A program made the translations under genes and the position numbers. Of a DNA stretch of 64,000 nt, positions 6,275-62,121 are shown in pieces. The notes under the pieces were generated by a model, which did not search any database, was not told the DNA's origin, and was given only the letters and a program-made list of their open reading frames with translations. Source of the DNA: an uncultured bacterium (GTDB taxonomy: Bacteria > Krumholzibacteriota > Krumholzibacteriia > LZORAL124-64-63). Location of the stretch: contig CAVSGO010000007.1 of assembly GCA_963727525.1 (NCBI GenBank), forward strand, positions 448,001 to 512,000. Reading direction: 5' to 3'. Each line of letters opens with the position of its first letter. The stretch's first letter is position 1.

Positions 6275-6351
<77 letters not shown>

Positions 6352-48577: not shown

Positions 48578-49942
48578 GTGCAGACGATCCTGGTGGTCGA
48601 CGACGAGGTCGCGATCCGCGAAACACTTGCCCAGATCTTGTCCTACGAGGGGTACCGCGTCCGCACTGCCGCCGACGGTCCCCGGGCACTGGCCGACCTC
48701 CAGGACGAAACGGCCGACGTGGTGCTGCTCGATGTCAAGATGCCCGGCATGGACGGGTTCGAGGTCCTCGCGCGGCTGGGCCGCGACTGGCCCCGACTGC
48801 CGGTCATCGTCATCTCCGGTCACGGCGACATCAAGACCGCCGTCGATGCCGTCAAGCAGGGCGCATACGACTTCCTCGAGAAACCTCTCGACCGCAATCG
48901 CCTCCTGGTCACGCTACAGAATTGCCTCGCCCACAGCCGTGTGGAGCGCGATCGCGAACGGCTGGCGGCCAAGGCCGGGCGCCGCGCACCCCTGATCGGG
49001 GAGTGCCCGGCCATGCACCAGGTCCGCGCCTTCATCGAGCGCGCAGCTCCGGCCAGCGGCACCGTCCTCATCACGGGCGAGAACGGCACCGGCAAGGAAC
49101 TCGTCGTGGCTGCCATCCACGCCGCGAGCCAGCGTCGCAATGGTCCGCTGATCGAGGTCAACTGCGCGGCGATCCCGAAGGACCTCGTGGAGAGCGAACT
49201 GTTCGGGCACGAGAAGGGCGCGTTCACTGGCGCCGACAAGTTGCGGGTCGGCAAGTTTGAGCAGGCAGACGGGGGGACGCTCTTCCTGGACGAGATCGGC
49301 GACATGAACGAGCAGGCGCAGGCCAAGGTGCTGCGTGCCGTGGAGGAGGGGCGATTCCAGCGCGTGGGCGGGAACGAGACGCTGCGGGTCGACGTCCGGA
49401 TCGTCGCCGCCACCAACCGTGACCTCACGCTGCCGGAAACGGGTTTCCGGCGCGACCTCTACTTCCGACTCAACGTCCTGTCTACGCACCTGCCGCCCTT
49501 GCGCGAGCGCGGTCACGACATCGATCTACTGCTCGCGCATTTCATGGCAACCCTCTCCGCGAACCTCAAGGTCAAGGCGAAGACCTTCGCGCCCGAGACA
49601 CTGGCGATCCTGCGCGGGTATGCCTGGCCGGGAAACGTCCGGGAACTGCGCAACCTCGTCGAGCGACTACTCATCCTTACCCCGGGCGATACGGTGCGAC
49701 CGGGCGACCTGCCGCTGTTGCCGGGCGCCGGCGACGGAGGTAAGGGCGAGTGGGACCTGTTGCGTTGCGCGGATTTCCAGGAGTTCAAGTCACGATCGGA
49801 GGGGCTCTATCTCCAGCACAAGTTGCGTGAGTTTCACTACAACGTCAGCCGGACAGCGGAGGCTCTGGCCATGCAGAGAAGCAACCTCTACAAGAAGATC
49901 GCCAAGTATGGTTTGCAAACTCAACCAGAGGACGAGACATGA
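48578..49942 (+). CDS. sigma54-dependent response regulator (REC-AAA+-HTH, NtrX-like)
   Basis: VVDDE, LLDVKMP, ISGHG, EKP; GENGTGKE, GAFTGA, FLDEIG, WPGNVREL; Fis-type HTH. Confidence 0.93.
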   Translation: MQTILVVDDEVAIRETLAQILSYEGYRVRTAADGPRALADLQDETADVVLLDVKMPGMDGFEVLARLGRDWPRLPVIVISGHGDIKTAVDAVKQGAYDFLEKPLDRNRLLVTLQNCLAHSRVERDRERLAAKAGRRAPLIGECPAMHQVRAFIERAAPASGTVLITGENGTGKELVVAAIHAASQRRNGPLIEVNCAAIPKDLVESELFGHEKGAFTGADKLRVGKFEQADGGTLFLDEIGDMNEQAQAKVLRAVEEGRFQRVGGNETLRVDVRIVAATNRDLTLPETGFRRDLYFRLNVLSTHLPPLRERGHDIDLLLAHFMATLSANLKVKAKTFAPETLAILRGYAWPGNVRELRNLVERLLILTPGDTVRPGDLPLLPGAGDGGKGEWDLLRCADFQEFKSRSEGLYLQHKLREFHYNVSRTAEALAMQRSNLYKKIAKYGLQTQPEDET

Positions 49943-50103: not shown

Positions 50104-50427
50104 ATGAAGGGAGTCCTCACCGTCCTTGTCCTGACGGCCGCCCTGCTCGTTGCGGCTTCTCTGGACAGCGGCGTTGCTCTGGCCGTCGTCGATGATGCGC
50201 CGCAGGGACAACCTCAGGGTATCGAAGTCCCGCACGGCGTACCGATGGTCATGGGTGACATGTCGGGCGAAGGCAACGAGGGCGATCCGGACGACATCGG
50301 CGGTGGTTTCCGTTCGTCGGGTTCCGGGATCGTCCACGACGTTCCGGATCCGCCTCCCGGCGGGTACGATCTGATGGATCATCTGGTCACTGTCTTTGCA
50401 CGATACTGGTTCCTCTACGTGCGGTGA
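50104..50427 (+). CDS. Small secreted protein / candidate signalling pro-peptide (107 aa)
   Basis: Strong RBS AAGGAGGAG; Sec signal MKGVLTVLVLTAALLVAASLDSGVALA; acidic Gly/Pro-rich middle (GEGNEGDPDDIGGG); aromatic/hydrophobic C-terminus. Confidence 0.8.
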   Translation: MKGVLTVLVLTAALLVAASLDSGVALAVVDDAPQGQPQGIEVPHGVPMVMGDMSGEGNEGDPDDIGGGFRSSGSGIVHDVPDPPPGGYDLMDHLVTVFARYWFLYVR

Positions 50428-50463
50428 GCCGGCGCCCGAGAACGCCGGCTCTTCGCTTCATTT
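50426..50463 (+). terminator. Intrinsic terminator-like hairpin between the peptide gene and the regulator
   Basis: GAGCCGGCG-N8-CGCCGGCTC followed by TTCGCTTCATTT. Confidence 0.65.
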
Positions 50464-50493
50464 CACGATCTGCGATCCACCACTCGCCAGGGG

Positions 50494-53400
50494 ATGCAGG
50501 TTATGGGCGATCGGTTTGATGGATTCGATAGCTATCCGCCGGGGCGCGAAGGAATTCGACGTACCGACGGGATAAGCGAGTATGAGCGGCTCGAGGAGGT
50601 CGGGGATCTCCACTTCCAGGCCGCCGCGTACTCGACTGCGCTCGATTACTACCGTCAAATCCTGCCTGCCGCGGTTCTGGACCGCTTCTCTCCTGCCCGC
50701 GCACTCGCTATCCTGCGCAAGGCACTCAACGCGCATCTCAATCTCGGGCAGATGAAACAGGTGGACGTACTTCTCGTCCGCGCGCACGCCGTGCTGAAGA
50801 ACGGGGTCGATCTCGCGCCGGCCGAGCTGGCACGGGAGCGCGCCCTGTTCATGGTGCGGCAGGCCGTCCTGCTGATGCAACGGTCGGACCATCAGGCGGC
50901 ACTGGACGTCGCGAAGCGGGCCTTCGCGATTCTCGCTCTGACAGATTTCCATGCCGAGGTCGCAAACCTCCAGCTCATCATGGGCGGTTGCCACCAGCGT
51001 ATGGGGCGACTCGACAAGGCGGAGGAGTTCTATCTCGACAGCCTGAGTACATTCCGCCGCGTGGGCGACGAGGTCGGCGCCGCTTCGCTCTATGGCAACC
51101 TCGCCCTGCTCTACAAGGTCCGTTGCTGCTGGGGCAAGGCCCTCGATCTGATGGACAAGGCGATTGCGCTCGTGGAGAAGCACGGCGCGCCGCAGCTCCT
51201 GACGGGATTCTTTCTCAACCAGGGCCTCGTCTATCTGAAGGTGGGGCGGTTCGCCGAGGCGCAGCTCGTGTTCGACAAGAGTCTGCGGCTCTGCCGGAGC
51301 CTGGGCGACCAGATCCGCGAACCCAAGGTCCTGCTGGCCCTGGGGCGACTGGAATTCCTCGAGGGGCGCCTGGCGCGGGCCGAGGAGACGGTGCTGGCCG
51401 GCAAGGCGCTCGCCGAACGTCTGCGGATGCGCCGCGAGTCCGTGATCGCCGACGAGTACTTCGGCGATATCCAGCTCGGGCGTGCTGATCCGCAGCATGC
51501 GCTGGAAACCTACGGATTCGGACTGGAGAAGAACCGCGGACTCGCGCACGCGGGCGACCTCGAGGCCGAACTCCTGCGCCGGGTCGCCGAGGCTCAGCGT
51601 CAGCTCGGTCACCACGCCGACGCCATCGCAACGGCCCACGCGGCCATAGCGGCCTGCGAGGCGAGCGGGGAAGTCTACGAGTTCGGTTTCTGCCGTCTGA
51701 CCCTGGCGCATGCCTACGCGGCACAGGGTGACTGGGAGCAGGCCGACGCGCATTTCCGGGGGGCGATCGACATCTTCCGCGGGCAGCATCTCGATCGCGA
51801 ATGGTGCGACACCGTGCTGCAGTACCTCGAGACGCGCCTCGAGTCGGCCGACAAGCCGGTCCTGCTCCTTTTGCGCCGCTTTCTCATCGACGCCCAGGCC
51901 CAGGCCGCGGCCGAGATCGGCGATGTCACCCTGTACGACTGCTTGCGCGGGCTCGTTCGGGTGCAACTTCGACTCGGACTCTTCGACGATGCTCTGCTTA
52001 CCGTATTCGAACTCGAACGCCACGCGCGCGGGCTCGACGATCCCGAGCGCCTCACGCTCGCAGAGCGCCTGCGGCAGGTGGTCGAGGCCGGCATGGTCGG
52101 GGGCCTCGAGGAAGCTGGATCCCCGCTCGTCGCGCTCTCCGGAATTCCCGGGCTCTTCAGTGCCGCGGACGGTTCGTTGACCCGTAACCTCGGATCGGTC
52201 CTGACGGCGGTGCGCGAGAAGGTGGGCGCGGATGTGGGATTCCTCGCCCTCGGGGAGCCCGGCAAACCGGCCACGTGGGGTCCCGCCGCGCGTCAGGGCG
52301 TGACGGAAAATCTCGTCGGGCAATTGCTGCGCTGGTTCGCCGATGAACGCAACCGGGATGGCGGGGATCAGGCACTCCTCGTGTCCCGGGTTTCGCGGCA
52401 CGCTGCCCTCGGCCGCGCGGTTCCGGCGCTGGCGGAGAACGTGGCGAGCTGTGTGTTCATGCCGATCACGGTGCACGACCGCGTGTTTGGGTTCTTGTTT
52501 CTAGGGCGCACCGTGGCCGAAGACGTTGCTTGTTTCGACCAGCAGGCCCTCGACTTCCTCGCGACGTACATGGGATTCCTGGCCCTGTTCCTGACCGACA
52601 AGATGCACCCTGCGGCCGAACCTCTGACCGCCTCCGAAGCCGATACGTTCGGTAACGTGATCACCCGCAACGAGCAGATGCTCGATGTGCTCTTGCTCAT
52701 CCGCAAAGTCGCGCCGAGCGATCTGACCGTGCTTCTGCGCGGCGAGACGGGGACCGGCAAGGGGTTGCTCGCCTACGCCCTGCATGCGCTCAGCCGCCGC
52801 AGCGAGCGCCGGTTCGTGGCGATCAACTGCGCCGCGATTCCTGAGACGCTGCTGGAAAGCGAACTGTTCGGTCATCTCAAGGGCAGCTTCACGGGAGCGG
52901 ATGTCGACAAGAAGGGGCTTCTCGTAGAGGCCGAGGGCGGTACGGTGTTCCTCGACGAGATCGGGAAGATGCCCCTCACGATGCAGGGCAAGCTGCTGCA
53001 CTTCCTCGACACGAAGGTGGTGCGCCCGGTAGGCTCCGCCCAGGAACGGGCGGTGGACGTGCGCATCGTCTGCGCCTCGAAATCCGATCTGCGGCAGCTC
53101 GTCGAGTCGGGACGCTTCCTCGAGGATCTCTACTTCCGATTGCTCGATTTCCCGATCGTGGTACCACCTCTGCGCGAGCGACCGGACGACATCCCGCTTC
53201 TCGCTGGCCACTTCGTGCAGCGGTTCGCAGGCGAGCTCGCGACCGAGGCGCCCGAGATCGGCAACGCGTGCATGGATGCTCTCGTCCAGTTCGACTGGCG
53301 AGGCAACGTGCGAGAGCTGGAGAAATGCCTGAAACGCGCCATGATCCTGGCGCAAGGCGAACCCGTACTGCGCCCGGATCATCTGCCGCGCGAGATGGTG

Positions 53401-53595
53401 CCATATCTCGCCGGAGGCGGTGGGGCCGACGTGATGCCACTTCGCGATATGCTGGCTGCCGTCGAGTCGCGTGAGATTGCGCGAGCCTTGCGCATGACGG
53501 CCGGCAACAAGGCGGCTGCGGCGCGCCGTCTTCAGATTTCCTATCCGAACCTTCTCAAGAAGATCCGCTTCTTCGGCCTCGCGGACGAGACCTGA
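50494..53595 (+). CDS. TPR-GAF-AAA+-HTH sigma54 enhancer-binding protein (no receiver domain)
   Basis: About 500 aa of TPR-like helices (LYGNLALLY, LNQGLVYLKVGRFAEA); GAF-like segment (SCVFMPI...FGFLFL...FDQQALDFL); GETGTGKG, ESELFGHLKGSFTGA, FLDEIG, DLYFRL, WRGNVRELE; HTH GNKAAAARRLQIS. Confidence 0.9.
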   Translation: MQVMGDRFDGFDSYPPGREGIRRTDGISEYERLEEVGDLHFQAAAYSTALDYYRQILPAAVLDRFSPARALAILRKALNAHLNLGQMKQVDVLLVRAHAVLKNGVDLAPAELARERALFMVRQAVLLMQRSDHQAALDVAKRAFAILALTDFHAEVANLQLIMGGCHQRMGRLDKAEEFYLDSLSTFRRVGDEVGAASLYGNLALLYKVRCCWGKALDLMDKAIALVEKHGAPQLLTGFFLNQGLVYLKVGRFAEAQLVFDKSLRLCRSLGDQIREPKVLLALGRLEFLEGRLARAEETVLAGKALAERLRMRRESVIADEYFGDIQLGRADPQHALETYGFGLEKNRGLAHAGDLEAELLRRVAEAQRQLGHHADAIATAHAAIAACEASGEVYEFGFCRLTLAHAYAAQGDWEQADAHFRGAIDIFRGQHLDREWCDTVLQYLETRLESADKPVLLLLRRFLIDAQAQAAAEIGDVTLYDCLRGLVRVQLRLGLFDDALLTVFELERHARGLDDPERLTLAERLRQVVEAGMVGGLEEAGSPLVALSGIPGLFSAADGSLTRNLGSVLTAVREKVGADVGFLALGEPGKPATWGPAARQGVTENLVGQLLRWFADERNRDGGDQALLVSRVSRHAALGRAVPALAENVASCVFMPITVHDRVFGFLFLGRTVAEDVACFDQQALDFLATYMGFLALFLTDKMHPAAEPLTASEADTFGNVITRNEQMLDVLLLIRKVAPSDLTVLLRGETGTGKGLLAYALHALSRRSERRFVAINCAAIPETLLESELFGHLKGSFTGADVDKKGLLVEAEGGTVFLDEIGKMPLTMQGKLLHFLDTKVVRPVGSAQERAVDVRIVCASKSDLRQLVESGRFLEDLYFRLLDFPIVVPPLRERPDDIPLLAGHFVQRFAGELATEAPEIGNACMDALVQFDWRGNVRELEKCLKRAMILAQGEPVLRPDHLPREMVPYLAGGGGADVMPLRDMLAAVESREIARALRMTAGNKAAAARRLQISYPNLLKKIRFFGLADET

Positions 53596-53845
53596 TCCCT
53601 GGAATCAACGATCGACGCCCAGGCATTGCCTTGCTGCCGCATGGAACGGATTGCGCCGCGGGGCTCCCAGGGTATAAATCTTTTTGTCATCCCAACTCAT
53701 TGTATCCAAGCGAGTTACGATTCGTGCGGGCTGATTGTAAATTCGTTTTATAGTGCGGCCCGGACACTCGCGCGCCAAAGCACTTTTCTGCTCTGCAACG
53801 TATTTTATTGTAACGACTTATAAAACAGAATAGGTCTGCTGTTTC

Positions 53846-53861
53846 CGGCATGACTTCTGCA
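53846..53861 (+). promoter_or_regulatory. sigma54 (-24/-12) promoter
   Basis: CGGCATGACTTCTGCA: GG(53847-8)-N10-GC(53859-60), with an AT-rich IHF-like site just upstream. Confidence 0.6.
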
Positions 53862-53871
53862 GATAGGGGAT

Positions 53872-54186
53872 CCGAAGGGGTGAGTAGTAGGGAACGAACC
53901 CACTTCATGGAATCAAGATCGTGACTTGGAGGCGCGGAGCGGAGACTCGCGCATACCGGCAAACGCGGGAGACGTTTTCATCATGTAGGTTCGCAACGAG
54001 GACTTAAAGAGGTGGGGTCTTTACATTCCTCGAGTGCGAACGTGGAGAACGACCGCAACACGACCTTCAAGCACGATCTTGGTCTACGTAAGAATTTTGT
54101 GAGCGAAGGGCCCTGGTTGGTTCTGAATTGGCGAGATTCAGAACCAAGATGCCGTTCTCGGCGGCGAGGGCTCTTCGCTATTCTTT
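53872..54186 (+). ncRNA. Candidate structured non-coding RNA (about 315 nt)
   Basis: Starts at the predicted sigma54 TSS; long-range helix 53914-53932/54064-54081; several inner hairpins; 3' three-way junction closed by a 13-bp stem and followed by ATTCTTT; no convincing ORF. Confidence 0.6.
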
Positions 54187-54452
54187 GTCCCCTCCGTTTC
54201 GCCGTCACCGGACGTGTGTTCCCCGGGTTGATCCCGCCGTCTCCAAAGATGGACGCTGTCCTCCGATCCGCACAGCCGCGACCCGATCGGCGACCGCACA
54301 TCGCGACCGTGACCGAGTACCTCATGGCCCAAGTGTCCGGATCCGGGTGTCATGGCAAGATCTTGTCTTATAGTGTTTTATACCGCGTATGAGCTCGGGT
54401 TGGCCTCGCTAGAAGGGCCGCCCCGACCCGGTATGGCGGCATGGGCCGGCGC

Positions 54453-54467
54453 TGGCACGAAGCCTGC
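54453..54467 (+). promoter_or_regulatory. sigma54 (-24/-12) promoter of the lipoprotein-DUF4384 operon
   Basis: TGGCACGAAGCCTGC, near consensus TGGCACG-N4-TTGC; about 45 nt upstream of the ATG at 54510, which has an AGGGAG RBS. Confidence 0.75.
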
Positions 54468-54509
54468 GATATGGTCGAGAAACACGAGGCGCCCTCGAGG
54501 AGGGAGATC

Positions 54510-55469
54510 ATGACTCGATCCGCAAGAATCCGGCACCGCGACATCGGCCTGCTGCCTCTGGGGTTAGCCCTCGCGCTGGCGTGGGCGCTATCGGGCTGCA
54601 GCAGTGATGATTGCGCCACGTGCGTCGAACCGGCACCCGTCGCTCCGACCAGCGTGTACTCGGAGAGCGGCGACAACCAGATCACGCTCTACTGGAGCGA
54701 TTTCGCCGAGATCTACAGCACCGTCGATCGCTACCAGGTCTTCAGCCGTTTCTACCAGAACGGCGACGAGAACGACCCGAACCGAACGTTCTATCTTATC
54801 GACGAGGTGGCCGTCGGCCAGAACTATGATCCCGACCTCCACCAGTACTCGTATGTCGACAATGCTGCGGACGTGGAGAACGGCGTCGACCTCGAGTATG
54901 CCGTGCGGGCGGTGTCGGCCTCGGGGCAGGCGGGCGATCTGAGCTACGAGCTGGTCATCGACACGCCGCTGCCGATGAGCGCGAGCCCCGTCGAGCTGTT
55001 CGATGCGGGCGGCGCCAATGGCAACCTCGGCGGCTTCGATTTCAGCCGGCTCGACAACGGGCGGGTGGATCCCAATGCCGTCGGAACCTCGGCCGACGTG
55101 AGGGTCGTATTCCGTGACGGCGTGCCATACCTCGAGGCCGTGCGGACCGAGGTGCATCTGCAGGATTTCGGTGTTTTCTCGGGCGGCAACGGGCAGCTCG
55201 ATTTCGCGGGGGTGTCCTGGGCACCGACCGATGGATATTCTGCGGCTGGTGTCCTCGAGATGATCGCCGGACACATCTACGTGGTCGAGATCACGAATGA
55301 ACCGGCCGGGGAGACCCACTACGCAAAGCTGGGCGTGACGAGCATCGTGCCAGCGACCCAGTCGGTCGAGGTGATGTGGGCCTACCAGCTCGTCAATGGT
55401 TTGCAGGAACTGCGTGTTCCTGACGAGCCGTCGCCGCGAGTGGACGAGTACGTCCCGATCAAGCTCTAG
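54510..55469 (+). CDS. Lipoprotein with FN3-like N-terminal domain and beta-rich C-terminal domain
   Basis: Lipobox LSGC; PVAPTSVYSESGDNQITLYW...YAVRAVS (FN3-like); GGFDFS...GHIYVV...HYAKL...WAYQ. Confidence 0.75.
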   Translation: MTRSARIRHRDIGLLPLGLALALAWALSGCSSDDCATCVEPAPVAPTSVYSESGDNQITLYWSDFAEIYSTVDRYQVFSRFYQNGDENDPNRTFYLIDEVAVGQNYDPDLHQYSYVDNAADVENGVDLEYAVRAVSASGQAGDLSYELVIDTPLPMSASPVELFDAGGANGNLGGFDFSRLDNGRVDPNAVGTSADVRVVFRDGVPYLEAVRTEVHLQDFGVFSGGNGQLDFAGVSWAPTDGYSAAGVLEMIAGHIYVVEITNEPAGETHYAKLGVTSIVPATQSVEVMWAYQLVNGLQELRVPDEPSPRVDEYVPIKL

Positions 55470-55505
55470 GGCCGCACGACGCGGTCACGACCAGGGAGGC
55501 ACGAC

Positions 55506-57365
55506 ATGACACACAGGAATGCGGACCAGCAACGACATCGCGCGTTGGTGCCCGGCCACTCGCCGGTACCTGGATTCGCGATGGTACGGGGCCTCGTGGT
55601 GATCGCCCTCCTGGTGGTTGCGGCCAGCGTGGCGGTCGGCCAGCCCGAAACGGACAAGAGTGCCCCGGCGAACACCGCCGACGCGGCTGCGCGCTATGCC
55701 GCGCAGGACCTGCGCGTCAACGTATGGGTCGACAAGGGCGGCGATGAGGTATATCGCCGCGGCGAGCTGATGAGCGTGTCGTTCCAGGCCAATGCGGACG
55801 CCTACATCGTCGTCTACCGGATCGACGCGGATGGCCGCGTGGAGATCCTCTGGCCGATCAGTCGCTACAACGATGGCTTCGCCTTCGGTGGGCACGAGTA
55901 CACGCTACCGACGAATGGTTCCGATCGGCTACGCACGGCGAGCGACGAGGGCGTGGGCTACGTGCAAGTGCTTGCCTCGCGCTATCCCTTCGATCTGCGC
56001 GCTCTCGACGTCGATTTCCACCAGGAGCCCTCGCAGCCGATCCACGACTACTACGTGACCGGTGATCCGTTCCTGGCCATGAACGAGGTCAACTTCGCCA
56101 TCACCGGGCTCGATGACCCGGGCGAGTTCGTGGTGAGCAACTACGCTTCCTACTACGTCCACCGTCAGGTCGATCATCCGCGTTACCTCTGTAGCCAGTG
56201 TCACCTCAATGACGGCTATGCGGATCGTCCGTACGATGCGGTCTGCACGATCGAGATCCACCACGACTACGGCTGGGCCAACGACTGGTGGGACACCTAC
56301 CGCTACTATCCCGTGTACTACTACCCGGCGTTCTACTACGTCGATCCGTGGTGGGGATCGCCCTGGGTGTCGTACTGGTACCGGCCGTGGTATCGCTGGC
56401 CTCTGGCCGTGGGCATCTACGACTGGTCGTACACGTGCTACGACTGGCGCTACTCGCCCTACTGGCGGGGCGACTGCTACACGGTGTCGCGCGATCTGCC
56501 GCATCGTTACCGGCCGCTCGACAAGACCCGCGTGGCCGGCGTCGACAAGCATGAAGGAAATGTCGGTTCGCGGCTGGTCACGGCGCGGCGACCGGGAAAT
56601 GACGTGGTCGCGGCCATGAAGTCTCGCGAGGCCGTGCGTAGCGATCGGGTGCGCGACGCTGTACGGAAGAACGATGTAGTGGCAGGCGGCCGGACATACC
56701 GGGACGTGAGCCCCGAGTCGCGGTCGCAGGGAAAGTTCACGCGTGACGGCCAGGGACGGACCTCCCCTGGCCTGCGCGTGCCGGAGAGGGGCGGGAGCGG
56801 TACGGCGCGTGCCGGCGACCGGGGTTCCCGCCCCACCGCCGACCGGCCGATCAGCCCCGCCGGCGGTCGAAAAGTCCTCGGCCCCCGCGTGGAACCGGGC
56901 ACGCCGGATCGCAGCGAGCGAGTCCAGGATACCCGTAGCGGGCGCGAGAGCGGTACGAATCGCCAGACCGGTGACCGCCGAACCATCAGGCCGGTCGAGC
57001 CTCGTCAAGGCTCGGTCTGGTCGGGCCGACGCGGGTCGAGCTCGCGGGGTTCCGAGCCTGCCCGCCCGGCGGAACCGGCGCGCGGCGGTAGCAGTGGCAA
57101 ATCTGGCAGCAGCGGCTCGTCTGGTCGCGTGGAACGCCCCTCCTCGCCGAGTCGCAGCGAAGGCACGTCGCAGAACCGCGAATCCTCGTCCAGTGGCCGA
57201 AGCAGCCACTCGAGCGGCAGCCGCGGCAGTTCCGTCAAGTCTTCGGGGTCGTCGCGCGGATCGTCGCCGGCGCAATCCTCGGGCGGTTCGGCGCGCTCCT
57301 CCTCGGGTACGAGCCGCGGGAGCTCGGGTCGCAGCAGCAGCCAGACCAGGGGAGGCCGGCGCTAG
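55506..57365 (+). CDS. DUF4384-domain exported protein with W/Y-rich segment and S/G/R-rich disordered tail
   Basis: Signal peptide; VWVDKG...YRRGE...DAYIVVYRIDADGRVEILWP (DUF4384-like); WGSPWVSYWYRPWY; low-complexity C-terminus; start may be 55581. Confidence 0.75.
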   Translation: MTHRNADQQRHRALVPGHSPVPGFAMVRGLVVIALLVVAASVAVGQPETDKSAPANTADAAARYAAQDLRVNVWVDKGGDEVYRRGELMSVSFQANADAYIVVYRIDADGRVEILWPISRYNDGFAFGGHEYTLPTNGSDRLRTASDEGVGYVQVLASRYPFDLRALDVDFHQEPSQPIHDYYVTGDPFLAMNEVNFAITGLDDPGEFVVSNYASYYVHRQVDHPRYLCSQCHLNDGYADRPYDAVCTIEIHHDYGWANDWWDTYRYYPVYYYPAFYYVDPWWGSPWVSYWYRPWYRWPLAVGIYDWSYTCYDWRYSPYWRGDCYTVSRDLPHRYRPLDKTRVAGVDKHEGNVGSRLVTARRPGNDVVAAMKSREAVRSDRVRDAVRKNDVVAGGRTYRDVSPESRSQGKFTRDGQGRTSPGLRVPERGGSGTARAGDRGSRPTADRPISPAGGRKVLGPRVEPGTPDRSERVQDTRSGRESGTNRQTGDRRTIRPVEPRQGSVWSGRRGSSSRGSEPARPAEPARGGSSGKSGSSGSSGRVERPSSPSRSEGTSQNRESSSSGRSSHSSGSRGSSVKSSGSSRGSSPAQSSGGSARSSSGTSRGSSGRSSSQTRGGRR

Positions 57366-57398
57366 GCATCGTCGGGAGTACATCGTCGTCATGGGTAT

Positions 57399-57582
57399 TG
57401 TGTTGGTGTCTTTTCCCCCCATCACCCGGCTGACCGGAAGGGACTCGGATCCTCGCAGAGGTTGGCAGCCAAGGAGAGGGAAGAGCACGGAAGGACGGTC
57501 GGGGACCACCAACACATGTGGAAGGGTCCGGAGCGAAGCTGTTGTCGATCAGGGGTGGCAATGTCGGAGCCCGGACCCTTCC
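57399..57582 (+). ncRNA. Candidate structured RNA element (3' UTR or small RNA), GGA-rich
   Basis: TGTGTTGGTG(57399-408)/CACCAACACA(57507-16) closes a multibranch domain; GGAAGGGTCCGG(57520-31)/CCGGACCCTTCC(57571-82) is a perfect 12-bp stem; strand inferred from the upstream operon. Confidence 0.45.
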
Positions 57583-57616
57583 CAGATTCTGAAGACTCGA
57601 GCCGCGGCGGGAGTGT

Positions 57617-57645
57617 TTGACCCCCGCCCGGCGTGTTCTTATCAT
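57617..57645 (+). promoter_or_regulatory. sigma70-type promoter
   Basis: TTGACC-N17-TATCAT. Confidence 0.6.
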
Positions 57646-57697
57646 GGCCGGCACCTCGCATCGGACGGAATCCGACATCCCCGAAAGGTCCAGGTCG

Positions 57698-60600
57698 ATG
57701 GCAACCTCCGACCGCCGCGCCCGTTGCCCGTTTTCCATTGCTGGTCGCGCGTTCCTCGTTCTCCTCATCGCCGCTATGGTGGCGACCACCCTGGCGCGCC
57801 CGGTGCGGCCCGCGCCGCCGTCCAGGCTCCCGGTCGACGCGGTTCCCCGCTATGTCGACAAGTTCCGCCCGCTGCAGGACGACGGTTCGACCGGTCTGCA
57901 GCAGCGGCGACTCGCCGGCGAAAAGGCGCCGGCGATGTTGCACGCCATCGTCCTGATGTGCGACTTCGCCGACAGCGCCTTCTACGGGCGTCCGGGTCTC
58001 TCGCCGGAGGCACCGGCGACATCGACTCAGAGCGATTTCTACTACGCCACGCACGATTCCCTGTACTACGCCCACCAGATGCGAGACGTCAGCGACTACT
58101 TCACGGCCGTCAGCGATGGGCAGTTCGCGCTGACGCGCGACGTCCTGGGCACCATCGTGCACCTTCCGCATCCGATGGCGTATTATGGTAACGACCCGAC
58201 CGAAGGTGAGCAGACGGTGCTGCTGGCGGCCGATGTGGTGGCCGCCGTCGATCCGCTCGTGGACTTCTCGCTCTATGACACAGTCGTGCTCATCCATGCC
58301 GGTGCCGGCGAGGAGACCGACATCCTCGACAACTCGCCCGAACAGATCTACAGCACCTATCTGGGCCCCGAAGACTTCGCGGGTGCAGTGGACGACTCGG
58401 TCCTCACCACTCCCTACATCCCGACCGACGATCAGCCGGCAGGTACCGGTGTACAGAACGTGCTCGTGCTGCCAGAGAACGAATTCCAGGATCCGTATGG
58501 CAGCTTCAAAGGCTACTTCGGATCGCTCGGTGTGTACTGCTTCGAGGTTGGGCTGCGCCTCGGCATGCTCTCGCTCAGCGACTTCACACCCTCTGGCCAT
58601 CCGGACAGCCAGGGGATCGGCGAGTTCGGCCTGATGGGCTATGGGCTCTTCGTCGGGGCCGGCTTCATTCCGCCACATCCCATTGCGTTCAACAAGCTGC
58701 TGATGGGGTGGCTCGACCCCTTCCCGGTCGACCCGACACCGGGAGCGACCTGGACCCTCGGACCAGCCGAACACACGCATGGCGCCGACGCCTGCGCGCG
58801 CGTGGACATCACGGGGCGCGAATACTGGCTGCTCGAGTATCGCCTCCAGGATCCCGATGCGAACGGCATCTTCAGCTTCACGGGAGACCTGAACGGCAAC
58901 AACGTACCCGACTTCTACGATGCGGACAGTGCCTACGGCGATGGTCGACCGACGAGTTATTTCGATCCGGCCACGGATCAACGGGAGTGGCTCACCGGAG
59001 CCGAGTGGGACTTCTTCATGAGCGAGAACACCGCGCGGCCGGACGGTGTCAAGGGTGCCGGTAGCGGTATCTACATCTGGCACGTCGACGAGGGCGTGAT
59101 CCAGGCGGCTTTCGGAGCGGCGAGCAATCTCTTCAACGCCGATGCTTCGCACAAGAGTGTGGATCTCGAGGAGGCCGACGGCATCCAGGACCTGGACACG
59201 CGGCAATCATCGCCGTGGCTCCTGGGCGGTGATTTCGACAGTTTCCGGGGCGAGGATGCGCCCGTTTTCGGGCCTGCGACGCGTCCGTCCACGGAGACGG
59301 CGAATGGTGCGCGCACCGGCATCGTGTTCGATGAGATCTCCGATGTCGCCGACTCCACCTATACCTATCACGCCGGGACGGACTCCGCCTACACCGGCCT
59401 GCACTACGCCGACGCGATGGCGTTCCGCTGCCGTCGCGCCGAAGCGTTGGTGGGCGCACCGACCCTGGCGATGACGGCGCTTCTCGACGGGATCGATCTG
59501 GGCGGATGCCAGCCTCTCGCCGCCGACCTCGATCAGGACGGGGCGGGCCAGGAGGTGCTGGCCGTGGCCGCCGATGGTGCTGTTGTGGTGCTCGATCCCC
59601 CGTCTCCAGTTCCTGTGGTGCAGTACGTCGTGGATAGCGGTGACACGGTGCGTTTCCGGCAGCCTGCCGCGGCGGGGCGTCTGGCCGGTACGCCGACGAC
59701 CGGCGGGCTCGATATCGTGGTCGCCAGCGATCGCGGCGTGCACTGGCTACGATACGAAGGTGGCGTCGTCAGCACACAGGGCACCGATCCGACGGGACTC
59801 GTCACGGCTGGCGTTTCTTGCCCGCAGCCGGCCGTGCTCTGGCCTGCCGACGGCGGGGACGGCGATGGATTCGCCGCCGAGCGCCCCGTACAGATTCGCG
59901 CCGTGGACCGCCGCGCCGATGCGGATCATCTCACGGTGGCCGACGCGACGAGCGTGATCGCGGATCTCGCCGTCCCGGGAGGGCGTATCCAGGGGCCGCT
60001 CGTGGTCGCTGGCGGCCACCTGTGGGCCGCTGCCGCGGACACGGCGGCGGGTACGGCGGTGCTCCTCGTGCAGCCGCTGACCGACCCGCAGGCCGCGCCG
60101 GCCGTGGTCCCATTGCCGCTCATGCCCGGCACGCTGCCGCTGGCCGTGACCAGGCTCGGCACCGATTTCGCGGTGGCCATCGTCGATACGGGCGGACGCG
60201 CGGCCACCGCCTGGCTGGACGAGACCACGTTGCGTGAGTCGCATCCGATTCAGCTATGGGGACGAGATCTCGAGGTGCGCTCGCCCATCGGATCGGAATT
60301 CGCGTTCGTGGGCGGGGCCGTTTGCGGGCGAGCGGCGCCGACGGGGGTCTGGTCGCTGGGCTGGCCGCTCTGGCTTGCCGACCCCGTCGAGGCGGCGACG
60401 CGAGTCGAGCGGGCCGCGGTGCCGCTGGCCTTGACGGTGAGCGGTGCCGCTGGACCGGATGTCCTCTTCGTCAGCCGCGATGGCCGCCTGTTCCGCTGTA
60501 CGGCAGGCGGCGAGGTGCGCGCGGGCTGGCCTCTCGCGGGACCGGGCGAATCGGCGGGCACACCCGTCGTGGCCGATGTGGTCGGCGATGGCGGGCTCGA

Positions 60601-61084
60601 TCTGATCACCTTCGGCGCCTTCGACCGCATCGCAGGAATCGAGGCGGGGCAACTCGTCACACGGCCGGTGTCGCGGATTGAGGTCTTCACGGGGCTGGCT
60701 GATGTGGGCGTCATTTCCGTGATGTGGTCCGGGAATCCGTGGCGGGCGGACGCCCTGCTGGCGAGCGGCGTGGCCGCCCCCGGCCCTTCGGGGGCCGCGC
60801 TCGTGGCCGGCACGCATTTCTGTTATCCGAACCCACTGCGAGCAGGCCCATTGCACGTGCGCGGTCAGGCCGGTCAGGATGGCCAGGCGCGGGCGTGGTT
60901 CTACAACCTCGAGGGGGAGGAGGTCGCCGTCTCGCCGTGGCAAGGCGTGGTGGCGGCAGCACCCTTCGAGATCACGCTGGATCTCGGTACGATCGCTTCA
61001 GGCCTGTACGTGTGCCGACTCGAGGTCGAGAGCGCGCGTGGCGGCAGCGAGACGAGTGTCAAGACCGTCGCCGTGGTGCGGTGA
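57698..61084 (+). CDS. M6-peptidase-like secreted protein lacking HEXXH, with FG-GAP-like repeats and FlgD/T9SS-type CTD
   Basis: DFAD, IHAGAGEE, LGVYCFEVGLRLGMLSLSD...GIGEFGLMGYG, EYWLLEYR, GIYIWHVDE, VDLEEADG; ADLDQDG; YPNPLR...ASGLY CTD. Confidence 0.75.
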   Translation: MATSDRRARCPFSIAGRAFLVLLIAAMVATTLARPVRPAPPSRLPVDAVPRYVDKFRPLQDDGSTGLQQRRLAGEKAPAMLHAIVLMCDFADSAFYGRPGLSPEAPATSTQSDFYYATHDSLYYAHQMRDVSDYFTAVSDGQFALTRDVLGTIVHLPHPMAYYGNDPTEGEQTVLLAADVVAAVDPLVDFSLYDTVVLIHAGAGEETDILDNSPEQIYSTYLGPEDFAGAVDDSVLTTPYIPTDDQPAGTGVQNVLVLPENEFQDPYGSFKGYFGSLGVYCFEVGLRLGMLSLSDFTPSGHPDSQGIGEFGLMGYGLFVGAGFIPPHPIAFNKLLMGWLDPFPVDPTPGATWTLGPAEHTHGADACARVDITGREYWLLEYRLQDPDANGIFSFTGDLNGNNVPDFYDADSAYGDGRPTSYFDPATDQREWLTGAEWDFFMSENTARPDGVKGAGSGIYIWHVDEGVIQAAFGAASNLFNADASHKSVDLEEADGIQDLDTRQSSPWLLGGDFDSFRGEDAPVFGPATRPSTETANGARTGIVFDEISDVADSTYTYHAGTDSAYTGLHYADAMAFRCRRAEALVGAPTLAMTALLDGIDLGGCQPLAADLDQDGAGQEVLAVAADGAVVVLDPPSPVPVVQYVVDSGDTVRFRQPAAAGRLAGTPTTGGLDIVVASDRGVHWLRYEGGVVSTQGTDPTGLVTAGVSCPQPAVLWPADGGDGDGFAAERPVQIRAVDRRADADHLTVADATSVIADLAVPGGRIQGPLVVAGGHLWAAAADTAAGTAVLLVQPLTDPQAAPAVVPLPLMPGTLPLAVTRLGTDFAVAIVDTGGRAATAWLDETTLRESHPIQLWGRDLEVRSPIGSEFAFVGGAVCGRAAPTGVWSLGWPLWLADPVEAATRVERAAVPLALTVSGAAGPDVLFVSRDGRLFRCTAGGEVRAGWPLAGPGESAGTPVVADVVGDGGLDLITFGAFDRIAGIEAGQLVTRPVSRIEVFTGLADVGVISVMWSGNPWRADALLASGVAAPGPSGAALVAGTHFCYPNPLRAGPLHVRGQAGQDGQARAWFYNLEGEEVAVSPWQGVVAAAPFEITLDLGTIASGLYVCRLEVESARGGSETSVKTVAVVR

Positions 61085-61188
61085 CGACCAAGGTTTGGTT
61101 GCCGCGCGATCCGTCGCGGCGTAGAGTTGGACGCGGGAGAATGACAACGGGCGGCGCGTTCCGACCCGGACGCGAGAGGAATGGAACC

Positions 61189-62121
61189 ATGCGGTACTCG
61201 AAGATGAAGACGCTGATGGCTAGCCTAGCTCTGGTAGTGCTAGCCGCCGGGCCGGCGCTGGCGGGACATCCCGGCGACGCGGGTTTCCTGTCCCTGCGAC
61301 TGGGTGTCGGGGCGCGTGAGGCGGCCATGGGCGGGGCTGGTGTGGCCACGACCGAGGGAGCGTCGGCGGCCTACTGGAACCCGTCGAACCTGGCCTTCCT
61401 CGATCACGGCACCTCGCTGATGCTGCAGCACCATCGCTGGCTGGGGCTGTTCGACCACAACGCGGCGGCGGTGACTCACGTGACGCCTTCGGGTGTGTTC
61501 GGCGTGCTGTTCAGCGGCCTCTATGCCGACAACATCGATCGCTACGGCACGGAGCCCGTCGGCATCCCCGAGGGGACATTCGCGCCCTACGATGTGGTGC
61601 TGGGGGTGAGCTACTCGCGTCGGATCGGTGACGATCTGGCGGTGGGGCTGCAGGCGAAGATGCTCTACGAGAAGATCGATGTTTACAGCGATACGGGCTG
61701 GGCGTTCGACCTCTTCGTCACGCACAGGGCACCGATGATCCCGGGTCTCACGTTCGCGGCCAGCGCCACGAACCTGGGAGGCCAGATGACGCTGATCGAC
61801 GTGCCGTTCGATCTGCCGCGGACGATCACGGTCGGACTCGGCTACTCGCCCGAAACGGGAATTCTCGCGCAGCGCCTCACAGTGACCGGCGAGGCGGCGT
61901 TCCTGAACGACACGAACGAGAAGGCCCACCTCGGTCTCGAGGTGAAGGTGGTGCCGGAGCTCGCGCTGCGTGCCGGCTATCGTGTGAACTACACCTCGCA
62001 GGGGCTCACGGCCGGCGCCGGTTTCCGCTACAGCAACGTGGGCGTGAACTATGCCTACGAGGACATCACCGAGAATGGTCTCGACCCCGGCCACAAGTTC
62101 TCGCTGGAGTTCCTCTTCTAG
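61189..62121 (+). CDS. PorV/PorQ family outer-membrane beta-barrel protein
   Basis: Signal peptide; FLSLRLGVGAREAAMG...AYWNPSNLA; alternating beta-strands, LRAGY, terminal HKFSLEFLF. Confidence 0.85.
   Translation: MRYSKMKTLMASLALVVLAAGPALAGHPGDAGFLSLRLGVGAREAAMGGAGVATTEGASAAYWNPSNLAFLDHGTSLMLQHHRWLGLFDHNAAAVTHVTPSGVFGVLFSGLYADNIDRYGTEPVGIPEGTFAPYDVVLGVSYSRRIGDDLAVGLQAKMLYEKIDVYSDTGWAFDLFVTHRAPMIPGLTFAASATNLGGQMTLIDVPFDLPRTITVGLGYSPETGILAQRLTVTGEAAFLNDTNEKAHLGLEVKVVPELALRAGYRVNYTSQGLTAGAGFRYSNVGVNYAYEDITENGLDPGHKFSLEFLF

Follow-up and report, generated by a model that had tools for sequence, protein, structure and literature searches.

A 64,000-nucleotide stretch of DNA from an uncultured bacterium of the phylum Krumholzibacteriota (contig CAVSGO010000007.1, positions 448,001 to 512,000; the whole stretch is called the window here) carries, at positions 53872-54186 of its plus strand, what is almost certainly a real RNA gene of no described family, about 305-315 nucleotides (nt) long. 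It stands out by its fold, its conservation, its covariation and the lack of a corresponding Rfam family. Together with its promoter it occupies positions 53846-54186 in a 914-nt gap, with the gene of a TPR-containing sigma-54 activator (50494-53595) on one side and a lipoprotein gene (from 54510) on the other. An initial annotation, made from the letters of the window, had proposed a highly structured non-coding RNA behind a sigma-54 promoter directly downstream of this activator, and this proposal is borne out by a structured RNA gene of about 310 nt whose sigma-54 promoter and terminator are both conserved. We consider it fairly probable (roughly 60%) that the product is a new sigma-54-dependent regulatory RNA of this length, which would act in trans from its own promoter and terminator. 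The gene-like conservation, the promoter and terminator motifs, the covariation and the synteny are seen directly in the genomes compared; from these we infer transcription, the responsible activator and the targets.

The region 53872-54190 of the plus strand gave a folding energy of -144.4 kcal/mol, compared with -103.6 ± 5.3 kcal/mol for 100 dinucleotide shuffles (z-score -7.70), and none of the shuffles was as stable. The high degree of structure expected from the initial annotation is thus found. The structure was examined on 44 full-length homologues (alignment A6, made with MAFFT), using an RNAalifold consensus with one hairpin added by hand; it comprises 81 pairs in 11 helices. Standard pairs fill 87.7% of the cells; sliding the 3' partner by 1-3 columns lowers this to 35-54%. 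At 65 of the 81 pairs both sides have changed. Conservation and covariation are both strong. The number of cells with a double change was 401, against 123 ± 12 in shuffles, and none of 500 shuffles reached the observed value on any measure. It should be mentioned that the minus strand, although less stable (-125.6 kcal/mol), has a similar z-score (-7.6). The plus strand is favoured because G-U pairs, which on the complementary strand would read as A-C, are frequent among the homologues; for example, UG is present in 33 of the 44 sequences at columns 144-149.

The 5' hairpin (helix P1, 53874-53906, plus strand as for all helices described here) is formed between GAAGGGGT and ACCC(A)CTTC and has the conserved loop GU.R.AGGGAAC. 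This hairpin had been recognised by eye, and 31 of the 44 sequences have it in the minimum free energy (MFE) structure of their first 62 nt; as fixed alignment columns, however, it is no better than controls. It is hard to judge by columns because subgroups are misaligned in this region. The long-range helix (P2), in which 53914-53932 pairs with 54064-54081, encloses the central domain (53914-54081). Its prediction is well supported, since 15 of its 17 pairs are compensatory. Helix P4 (GUUUUC/GAGAAC) and the long hairpin P5 (53989-54041) together span 53974-54050. The long hairpin, also foreseen, has 16+4 pairs, 18 of which are compensatory, including all 16 pairs of the long arm. Its apical loop (54009-54019, GAGGUGGGGUC) is invariant in the alignment, and the GUGGGGU within it is the most widely conserved element; one genus has the variant AUGUGGGGUU.

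The two small hairpins with GGAGA loops that had been placed in the central domain did not hold up. Both are missing from the MFE structure of the window, and the upstream one (X1:X', the only one of the two tested) pairs in 62.9% of the cells, which is no better than the slid controls. A competing helix between CCUC and a downstream GAGG is paired in 84.9% of the cells, with compensatory changes at four of its five pairs. It encloses a near-invariant ACCGGC junction element (53955-53960), which is at least 90% conserved in the alignment. The 3' domain (54102-54186) has the form of a branched intrinsic terminator consisting of P7 (54102-54114 with 54167-54179), P8 (54117-54147), P9 (54151-54162) and the U-tract ATTCTTT. 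The three-way junction described by the initial annotation at this place is supported on the 44 homologues with 9+11+3 pairs; all 11 pairs of the P8 hairpin are compensatory, and its loop GGCGAGA (54130-54136) is invariant in all 44 rows. The U-tract at the 3' end, of the GGGCUCUUUU type, is conserved, and a terminator-like site is predicted there.

Upstream of the RNA, promoter P1 (CGGCATGACTTCTGCA, 53846-53861, plus strand) is of the sigma-54 type, with the -24 GG at 53847-53848 and the -12 GC at 53859-53860. This GG-N10-GC motif had been taken for a sigma-54 promoter, and a match is present upstream of the RNA core at all 46 loci of the window's own family (f1; f2 to f9 denote other families of the phylum). 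In f1 loci with a recognisable 5' block, the match mostly ends 13-17 nt before a conserved GAAGGGG. This spacing places the start at or just before the GAAGGGG block, and in the window the RNA would start at about 53871-53874, as read off the promoter position. A GG-N10-GC promoter is also present at all 13 loci examined in f3, f4, f6, f7, f8 and f9, and rpoN was found in the genome.

Collinear BLASTN matches were obtained in only 4 of 60 relatives, and for this reason a covariance model was needed. The model covers the central 101 nt and was built from five sequences, namely the window and these four relatives. It gave exactly one match in each of 67 f1 genomes out of 91 (45 of 55 high-quality genomes; 24 of 28 genera). 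In a class-wide sample it matched 36 of 151 genomes, all from f1 except for one from f6. Ten f1 genomes with the lipoprotein gene and no filtered match were re-examined; with the filters off, the core was found just upstream of the gene in nine of them (E-values 8e-8 to 9e-3). This means that the RNA is near-universal in f1. In addition, a pattern scan of one genome per species (185,579 species) returned 70 matches, 45 of which were confirmed by the model. The confirmed records are labelled Krumholzibacteri*, "bacterium", "uncultured bacterium" or "uncultured Fibrobacteraceae", together with one 2-kb "Chromatiaceae" contig. No record titled Eisenbacteria was among the matches to this pattern, which is of the f1/f6 type. 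The 25 unconfirmed matches come from other phyla and agree with the chance expectation.

The region upstream of the lipoprotein gene was also surveyed in 15 genomes of the families f2, f3, f4, f6, f7, f8 and f9. The 13 loci outside f2 all share one order. An activator orthologue (39-50% identity) comes first and is followed by a sigma-54 promoter; GTGGGGT lies 43-282 nt past this promoter, and a second sigma-54 promoter comes last. At the same 13 loci, a terminator with a U-tract stands behind the GTGGGGT hairpin. The fold z-scores in these families range from -2.9 to -6.2. The full central core is present at all three f6 loci, together with the activator, P1, GTGGGGT and the second promoter (P2). 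In f4 and f8 (three loci each) the RNA is about 265-310 nt long with another 5' domain, and a G-loop hairpin (GAGA-GGUGGGG-UCUC) tops the terminator; the GGCGAGA element is absent, and the model matches the apical hairpin only. In f3, f7 and f9 (two, one and one loci) the RNA is about 140-148 nt long, with the G-loop and a U-tract end. In f3, f4, f7, f8 and f9 the 3' end of the RNA is a long hairpin with U5-U8 behind it. At the two f2 loci neither the activator nor the RNA is found upstream of the lipoprotein gene. Genome-wide pattern matches in five f2 genomes did not exceed the reversed control, and the RNA was not found there with these queries.

The GGCGAGA loop also occurs in f3, f6, f7 and f9, and in f3, f7 and f9 it belongs to a separate module. 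This is a three-way junction of about 90 nt located further downstream (L164:512-606(-), L165:466-561(-), L173:406-500(-) and L177:443-537(-)), closed by CAGGGG/CCCCUG or a covarying equivalent, with z-scores of -3.4 to -5.2. One of its hairpins has the GGCGAGA loop and the second a CAUCCCC loop. The second hairpin is near-identical in all four genomes (GUAUGGACAUCCCCUCCGGU), and its C-rich loop resembles an anti-Shine-Dalgarno sequence. Sigma-70-like matches (10/12) lie about 18-29 nt upstream of the module in f7 and f9, in numbers not above those in shuffles. It is possible that this junction element is an independent RNA. A convincing copy of the C-rich hairpin was not found in the window's genome. 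In f3, f7 and f9, a kissing interaction between the G-loop and CAUCCCCUCC, the C-rich loop found in the separate module, was considered and rejected, as 69-204 of 500 shuffles were as good. Judged from these loci, the universal element is the GGUGGGG hairpin behind a predicted sigma-54 promoter, and the 310-nt RNA seems to unite two modules that stand apart elsewhere.

With regard to the identity of the RNA, a scan of the window against Rfam 15 gave nothing for it at the gathering score; at E<=10 there were two sub-threshold matches, both outside the RNA. The loci of seven relatives gave no match at E<=0.1. The families covered include Qrr, CsrB/Rsm, CrcZ, GlmY/Z, 6S, OLE, ROOL and raiA, so that the initial annotation, which had recognised no known family, agrees with the scan. 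It had also set aside RNase P, tmRNA, SRP and 6S, and rightly so: the genome's own copies of all four are located elsewhere on contig C7, above the cut-offs. It might be supposed that there is no RNA gene here and that the conservation reflects DNA-level regulatory sites between two promoters, or a coding open reading frame (ORF). The region does lie between the activator gene and a sigma-54 operon and holds DNA motifs, the minus strand has a nearly equal z-score, and an ORF of 126 codons is present at 54012-54392. However, 65 of the 81 pairs hold through two-sided changes, which is expected neither of DNA sites nor of coding sequence, and the G-U pairs are strand-specific. The ORF has no Pfam match, and tblastn gave nothing better than E 0.006 over 24 residues. 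Its frame runs into a stop after at most 41 codons in 34 of 46 homologues; it is not a conserved protein. This explanation is scarcely credible and is already refuted as far as sequence analysis allows.

The position of the RNA relative to the activator gene is strict. The C-terminal part of the activator is encoded upstream on the same strand at all 46 f1 loci (48-71% identity). With the 13 loci of f3, f4, f6, f7, f8 and f9, where the orthologue likewise stands directly upstream of the RNA, the adjacency holds at 59 of 59 loci across seven families. Downstream, the lipoprotein gene is found at 42 of 46 f1 loci, the four misses being contigs that end too early. At all loci the RNA has the same orientation as both neighbouring genes. 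A second activator gene, of the response-regulator type (48578-49942), lies about 4 kb upstream of the RNA and is syntenic in all five genomes checked, one of them from f4. The conserved order of the module is therefore response-regulator activator, small secreted protein, TPR activator, RNA and operon. The module thus has two activators and two promoters, and either activator may drive promoter P1.

We propose the following course of events. The RNA would be transcribed from the sigma-54 promoter, which lies some 250 nt past the end of the activator's reading frame, to the branched terminator with its U-tract. It would fold into the 5' hairpin, the long-range helix around a multi-branch core, the long arm with the GGUGGGG apex, and the 3' three-way junction with the GGCGAGA hairpin. 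It would be made when a sigma-54 activator of the conserved module is active, alongside the sigma-54 operon for surface proteins linked to the type IX secretion system (T9SS), and it would act through its invariant loops. The GGCGAG loop might pair with a CUCGCC box abutting the ribosome-binding site of the TPR activator's mRNA, leading to negative feedback. Taken alone, this last step is tentative; it offers a concrete hypothesis, namely feedback on activator translation.

As candidate partner of the P8 loop, the activator mRNA has a box in its leader at 50483-50488 (plus strand), separated by 5 nt from the AUG at 50494. The sequence CUCGCC is the exact complement of GGCGAG. It is present in 13 of 13 f1 leaders and 3 of 3 f6 leaders, 4-6 nt before the start codon and beside a purine-rich ribosome-binding site. 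In f1 the whole leader is conserved as GAUCCAC-N3-4-CUCGCC-RAGGG-AUG-CRG-UUG-AUG (50475-50496 in the window). In two genomes the first start codon position is AUA, and an in-frame AUG follows three codons on. In the window eight pairs are possible, between 54128-54135 and 50483-50490. In 10 of the 11 genomes scored, the P8 loop and the leader are predicted to form a duplex at one and the same position, with an energy of -12 to -14.6 kcal/mol that was matched by 0-18 of 300 dinucleotide shuffles. Furthermore, f4 and f8 lack both the GGCGAGA loop and the CUCGCC box. These observations make the feedback pairing a lead that is suggestive only.

Several points weigh against the proposed trans-acting RNA and its feedback step. 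The start, the end and the strand of the putative transcript are all deduced. The sigma-54 motif is not enriched in the window, where five matches with at most one mismatch compare with 5.4 expected; because it is no commoner than chance, the weight must rest on its conservation. The controls for covariation were generous, since structure and alignment came from one MAFFT/RNAalifold pass and the genomes are related, although the margin is large and spread over all main helices in spite of this. The CUCGCC box was not found in the activator leaders of f3, f4, f7, f8 and f9, and f3, f7 and f9 keep the GGCGAGA hairpin with no CUCGCC at the activator start. This means that pairing with the box cannot explain the conservation of the loop everywhere. 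Within f1 both loop and box are invariant, hence there is no base-by-base covariation between them, and the chance that any of the three invariant loops matches a 45-nt leader by a perfect 6-mer is about 0.1 by a rough estimate. As for the GGUGGGG loop, 13-228 of 300 shuffles paired as well with the activator leader, with no signal in most of the 11 genomes. Its pairing with the first 300 nt of the lipoprotein mRNA averaged -17.1 kcal/mol over 41 loci, against -17.5 kcal/mol for the reversed control. Among the targets scored, namely the activator leader, the lipoprotein mRNA and the C-rich loop, the universal loop seems to have no supported partner. Moreover, invariance over 9-11 nt across families suits a protein or another fixed partner as well as it suits pairing with an mRNA. 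Mimicry of a Shine-Dalgarno sequence by GAGGUG was also considered; this idea is weakened by the genus that has AUGUGGGGUU instead.

There is another explanation, in which the loops GGUGGGG, GGCGAGA and AGGGA (the latter from helix P1) dock a conserved protein other than CsrA, which the RNA would sequester or scaffold; the partner might even be the TPR domain of the activator. We regard this as conceivable but doubtful. The loops are invariant over 7-11 nt though the flanking lipoproteins are only about 29-42% identical, the RNA is large and multi-domain, the universal loop has no convincing mRNA target, Hfq was not found, and the RNA adjoins the activator gene at every one of the 59 loci in seven families. 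On the other hand, the adjacency is equally explained by transcriptional control, and the architecture around the loop varies greatly between families, more than is usual in an RNA-protein particle of fixed form. The RNA might also belong to a modular system spanning the phylum, in which the modules are fused in f1 and f6 and split in f3, f7 and f9, the second is missing in f4 and f8, and the loops bind a conserved protein, for which the activator's TPR domain is one possibility. This seems rather improbable; if true, it would mean that the RNA feeds back directly on the sigma-54 activator protein.

A cis-acting origin, either as a structured leader of the lipoprotein operon with an attenuator terminator or as a product of the 3' untranslated region of the activator mRNA, is unlikely. 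It would fit the shared orientation with both neighbours at all loci and the competing CCUC/GAGG pairings on either side. A precedent is also found in CrcZ, which arises by read-through from cbrB and processing as well (PMC5113210). Nevertheless, a separate sigma-54 promoter stands before the operon, about 270 nt past the terminator (42 of 44 loci), the RNA is preceded by one of its own at 46 of 46 loci, the relatives in f3, f4, f7, f8 and f9 end in a long hairpin with U5-U8, and the competing pairings lie inside the core, away from the terminator.

The initial annotation had also compared the RNA with sponges of CsrA, partly on the grounds of eight GGA motifs in the first 175 nt. The count is right, but it does not amount to an enrichment: 6.5 ± 1.7 are expected, and 270 of 1000 shuffles reach eight. 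The whole RNA has 8 against 9.9 expected. Half or more of the homologues share a GGA at two positions only, one unpaired in the loop of helix P1 and one base-paired, and the invariant loops of the alignment contain no GGA. CsrA recognises hairpin loops containing GGA, according to PMC13443453. The window's genome has a csrA gene (C7:1012664-1012816, locus L080) adjacent to fliW, with fliS close by. In a count over genomes of at least 90% completeness, the gene turned up in 0 of 8 from f4, 0 of 8 from f8, 0 of 4 from f7 and 6 of 26 from f3, and it is in all sampled f1, f2 and f5 genomes; its distribution probably tracks flagella. It was not found in the f6 genomes G046, G056 and G115, all of which have the full RNA core. 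According to the tallies it was also not found in the f4, f7 and f8 genomes G049, G039, G153, G123, G059, G135 and G130, all of which have the RNA or the GGUGGGG hairpin.

A CsrA sponge of the CsrB/RsmZ kind is therefore very unlikely. Such a role would be consistent with the presence of csrA in the window's genome and with the GGA in the P1 loop, which is unpaired in 40 of 44 homologues. An altered specificity of CsrA is also conceivable, because the CsrA proteins of Krumholzibacteriota are predicted to be rarely of the canonical functional class (PMC13443453, 2026). Against this stand the lack of GGA enrichment with one conserved unpaired GGA only, the invariant loops without GGA, the location of csrA beside fliW and fliS, and the occurrence of the RNA or its core hairpin in f4, f6, f7 and f8 genomes with no csrA match. 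The sponge analogy is already largely refuted by this distribution. Concerning Hfq, no match to PF17209 was found in the window's genome, which is 96.7% complete, so that this is not proof of absence.

Small RNAs transcribed from sigma-54 promoters under a nearby-encoded activator include Qrr of Vibrio (with LuxO) and GlmY of enterobacteria (with GlrR). They are about 100-180 nt long, Hfq- or RapZ-linked, and proteobacterial. The RNA described here differs from both in its length of about 310 nt, in having no Rfam match, and in that Hfq was not found in the genome. The analogy to Qrr drawn by the initial annotation is consequently weak, the present RNA being three times as long. With the CsrB and RsmZ sponges it shares a multi-hairpin form and purine-rich apical loops; it differs from them in that GGA is neither enriched nor in the invariant loops, in that it occurs in genomes without csrA, and in that csrA is here linked to fliW. 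The closest known arrangement seems to be that of crcZ, which in Pseudomonas lies immediately downstream of cbrB and has a promoter dependent on CbrB and RpoN. CrcZ titrates Hfq/Crc via A-rich motifs (both statements from PMC5113210). Both systems have an RNA gene of several hundred nt directly behind a sigma-54 activator gene, in the same orientation and with a sigma-54-type promoter. The likeness would be in layout only: there is no relation in sequence or by Rfam, the conserved loops are G-rich here, Hfq was not found, and a second sigma-54 promoter and an operon follow. The G-rich loops, the size and the independence of CsrA and Hfq set the present RNA apart.

Krumholzibacteriota have no cultured, genetically studied member. 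In the literature search no report of a regulatory RNA in this phylum was found, nor anything joining the phylum with sigma-54. With about 310 nt and at least 11 helices supported by covariation, the RNA is large for a bacterial regulatory RNA, and it is single-copy and near-universal in seven of the eight families examined. If the proposed role is right, it would be a well-supported addition, from outside the Proteobacteria, to the few RNAs that depend on sigma-54. Together, the two activators, the RNA and the surface operon linked to the T9SS make up a conserved regulatory module; the operon is present in 185 of 208 genomes of the phylum. From family to family the RNA modules are split, fused or lost, a natural experiment in the rebuilding of a structured RNA around one invariant loop.

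Several DNA motifs accompany the two promoters. An AT-rich, partly palindromic element, GTAAC...TTA, is conserved upstream of P1 at 53810-53825 in an alignment of 30 loci; relatives have TAACTTGTT-N-AACAAGTTA. It is possibly a site for a bending protein or an activator. Further upstream, the short motifs AACTCATTG (53694-53702) and TTTTATAG (53746-53753) recur likewise in several other families and may be activator or bending-protein sites. Promoter P2 of the downstream operon (TGGCACGAAGCCTGCG, 54453-54468, plus strand) is also of the sigma-54 type and lies about 270 nt downstream of the RNA terminator; it is kept in 42 of 44 loci, compared with 3 of 44 when the opposite strand is scanned. 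A partly palindromic block, GTCyCC-N4-5-GGrrAC...TGTCC, lies between the terminator and P2 and is conserved in the alignment at 54238-54274. A regular expression for it matched 26 of 44 f1 loci, about 180-215 nt upstream of P2 and downstream of the RNA gene. Related TGTCC-N7-9-GGACA palindromes occur in other families, and the block is probably an activator-binding site. The element upstream of P1 differs from that upstream of P2.

The TPR-GAF-AAA+ activator gene (50494-53595, plus strand) encodes 1033 amino acids with Pfam matches to Sigma54_activat (3.7e-63), TPR, GAF and HTH_8. A terminator-like hairpin (50428-50465) stands just before it. A small ORF with a signal peptide and of no family (50106-50427) is located between the response-regulator activator gene and the TPR activator gene. 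The lipoprotein gene (54510-55469, plus strand), the first of the co-located operon, has a signal peptide with a lipobox, as read from the translation, and no match in Pfam or NCBIfam. It is single-copy in 81 of 91 f1 genomes and is present, also single-copy, in 185 of 208 genomes of the phylum, with only about 29-42% identity between the proteins of different families. The operon behind the RNA has four genes (54510-62121). The second encodes a DUF4384 protein (55506-57365). The third encodes a "T9SS-dependent M6-like inactivated metalloprotease" (57617-61084; NF052323, 4.4e-52, below the cut-off), and the fourth a PorV/PorQ-family protein (60724-62121). Far from this locus, a tRNA gene at 6278-6351 on the minus strand is the sole Rfam match at the gathering score in the window.

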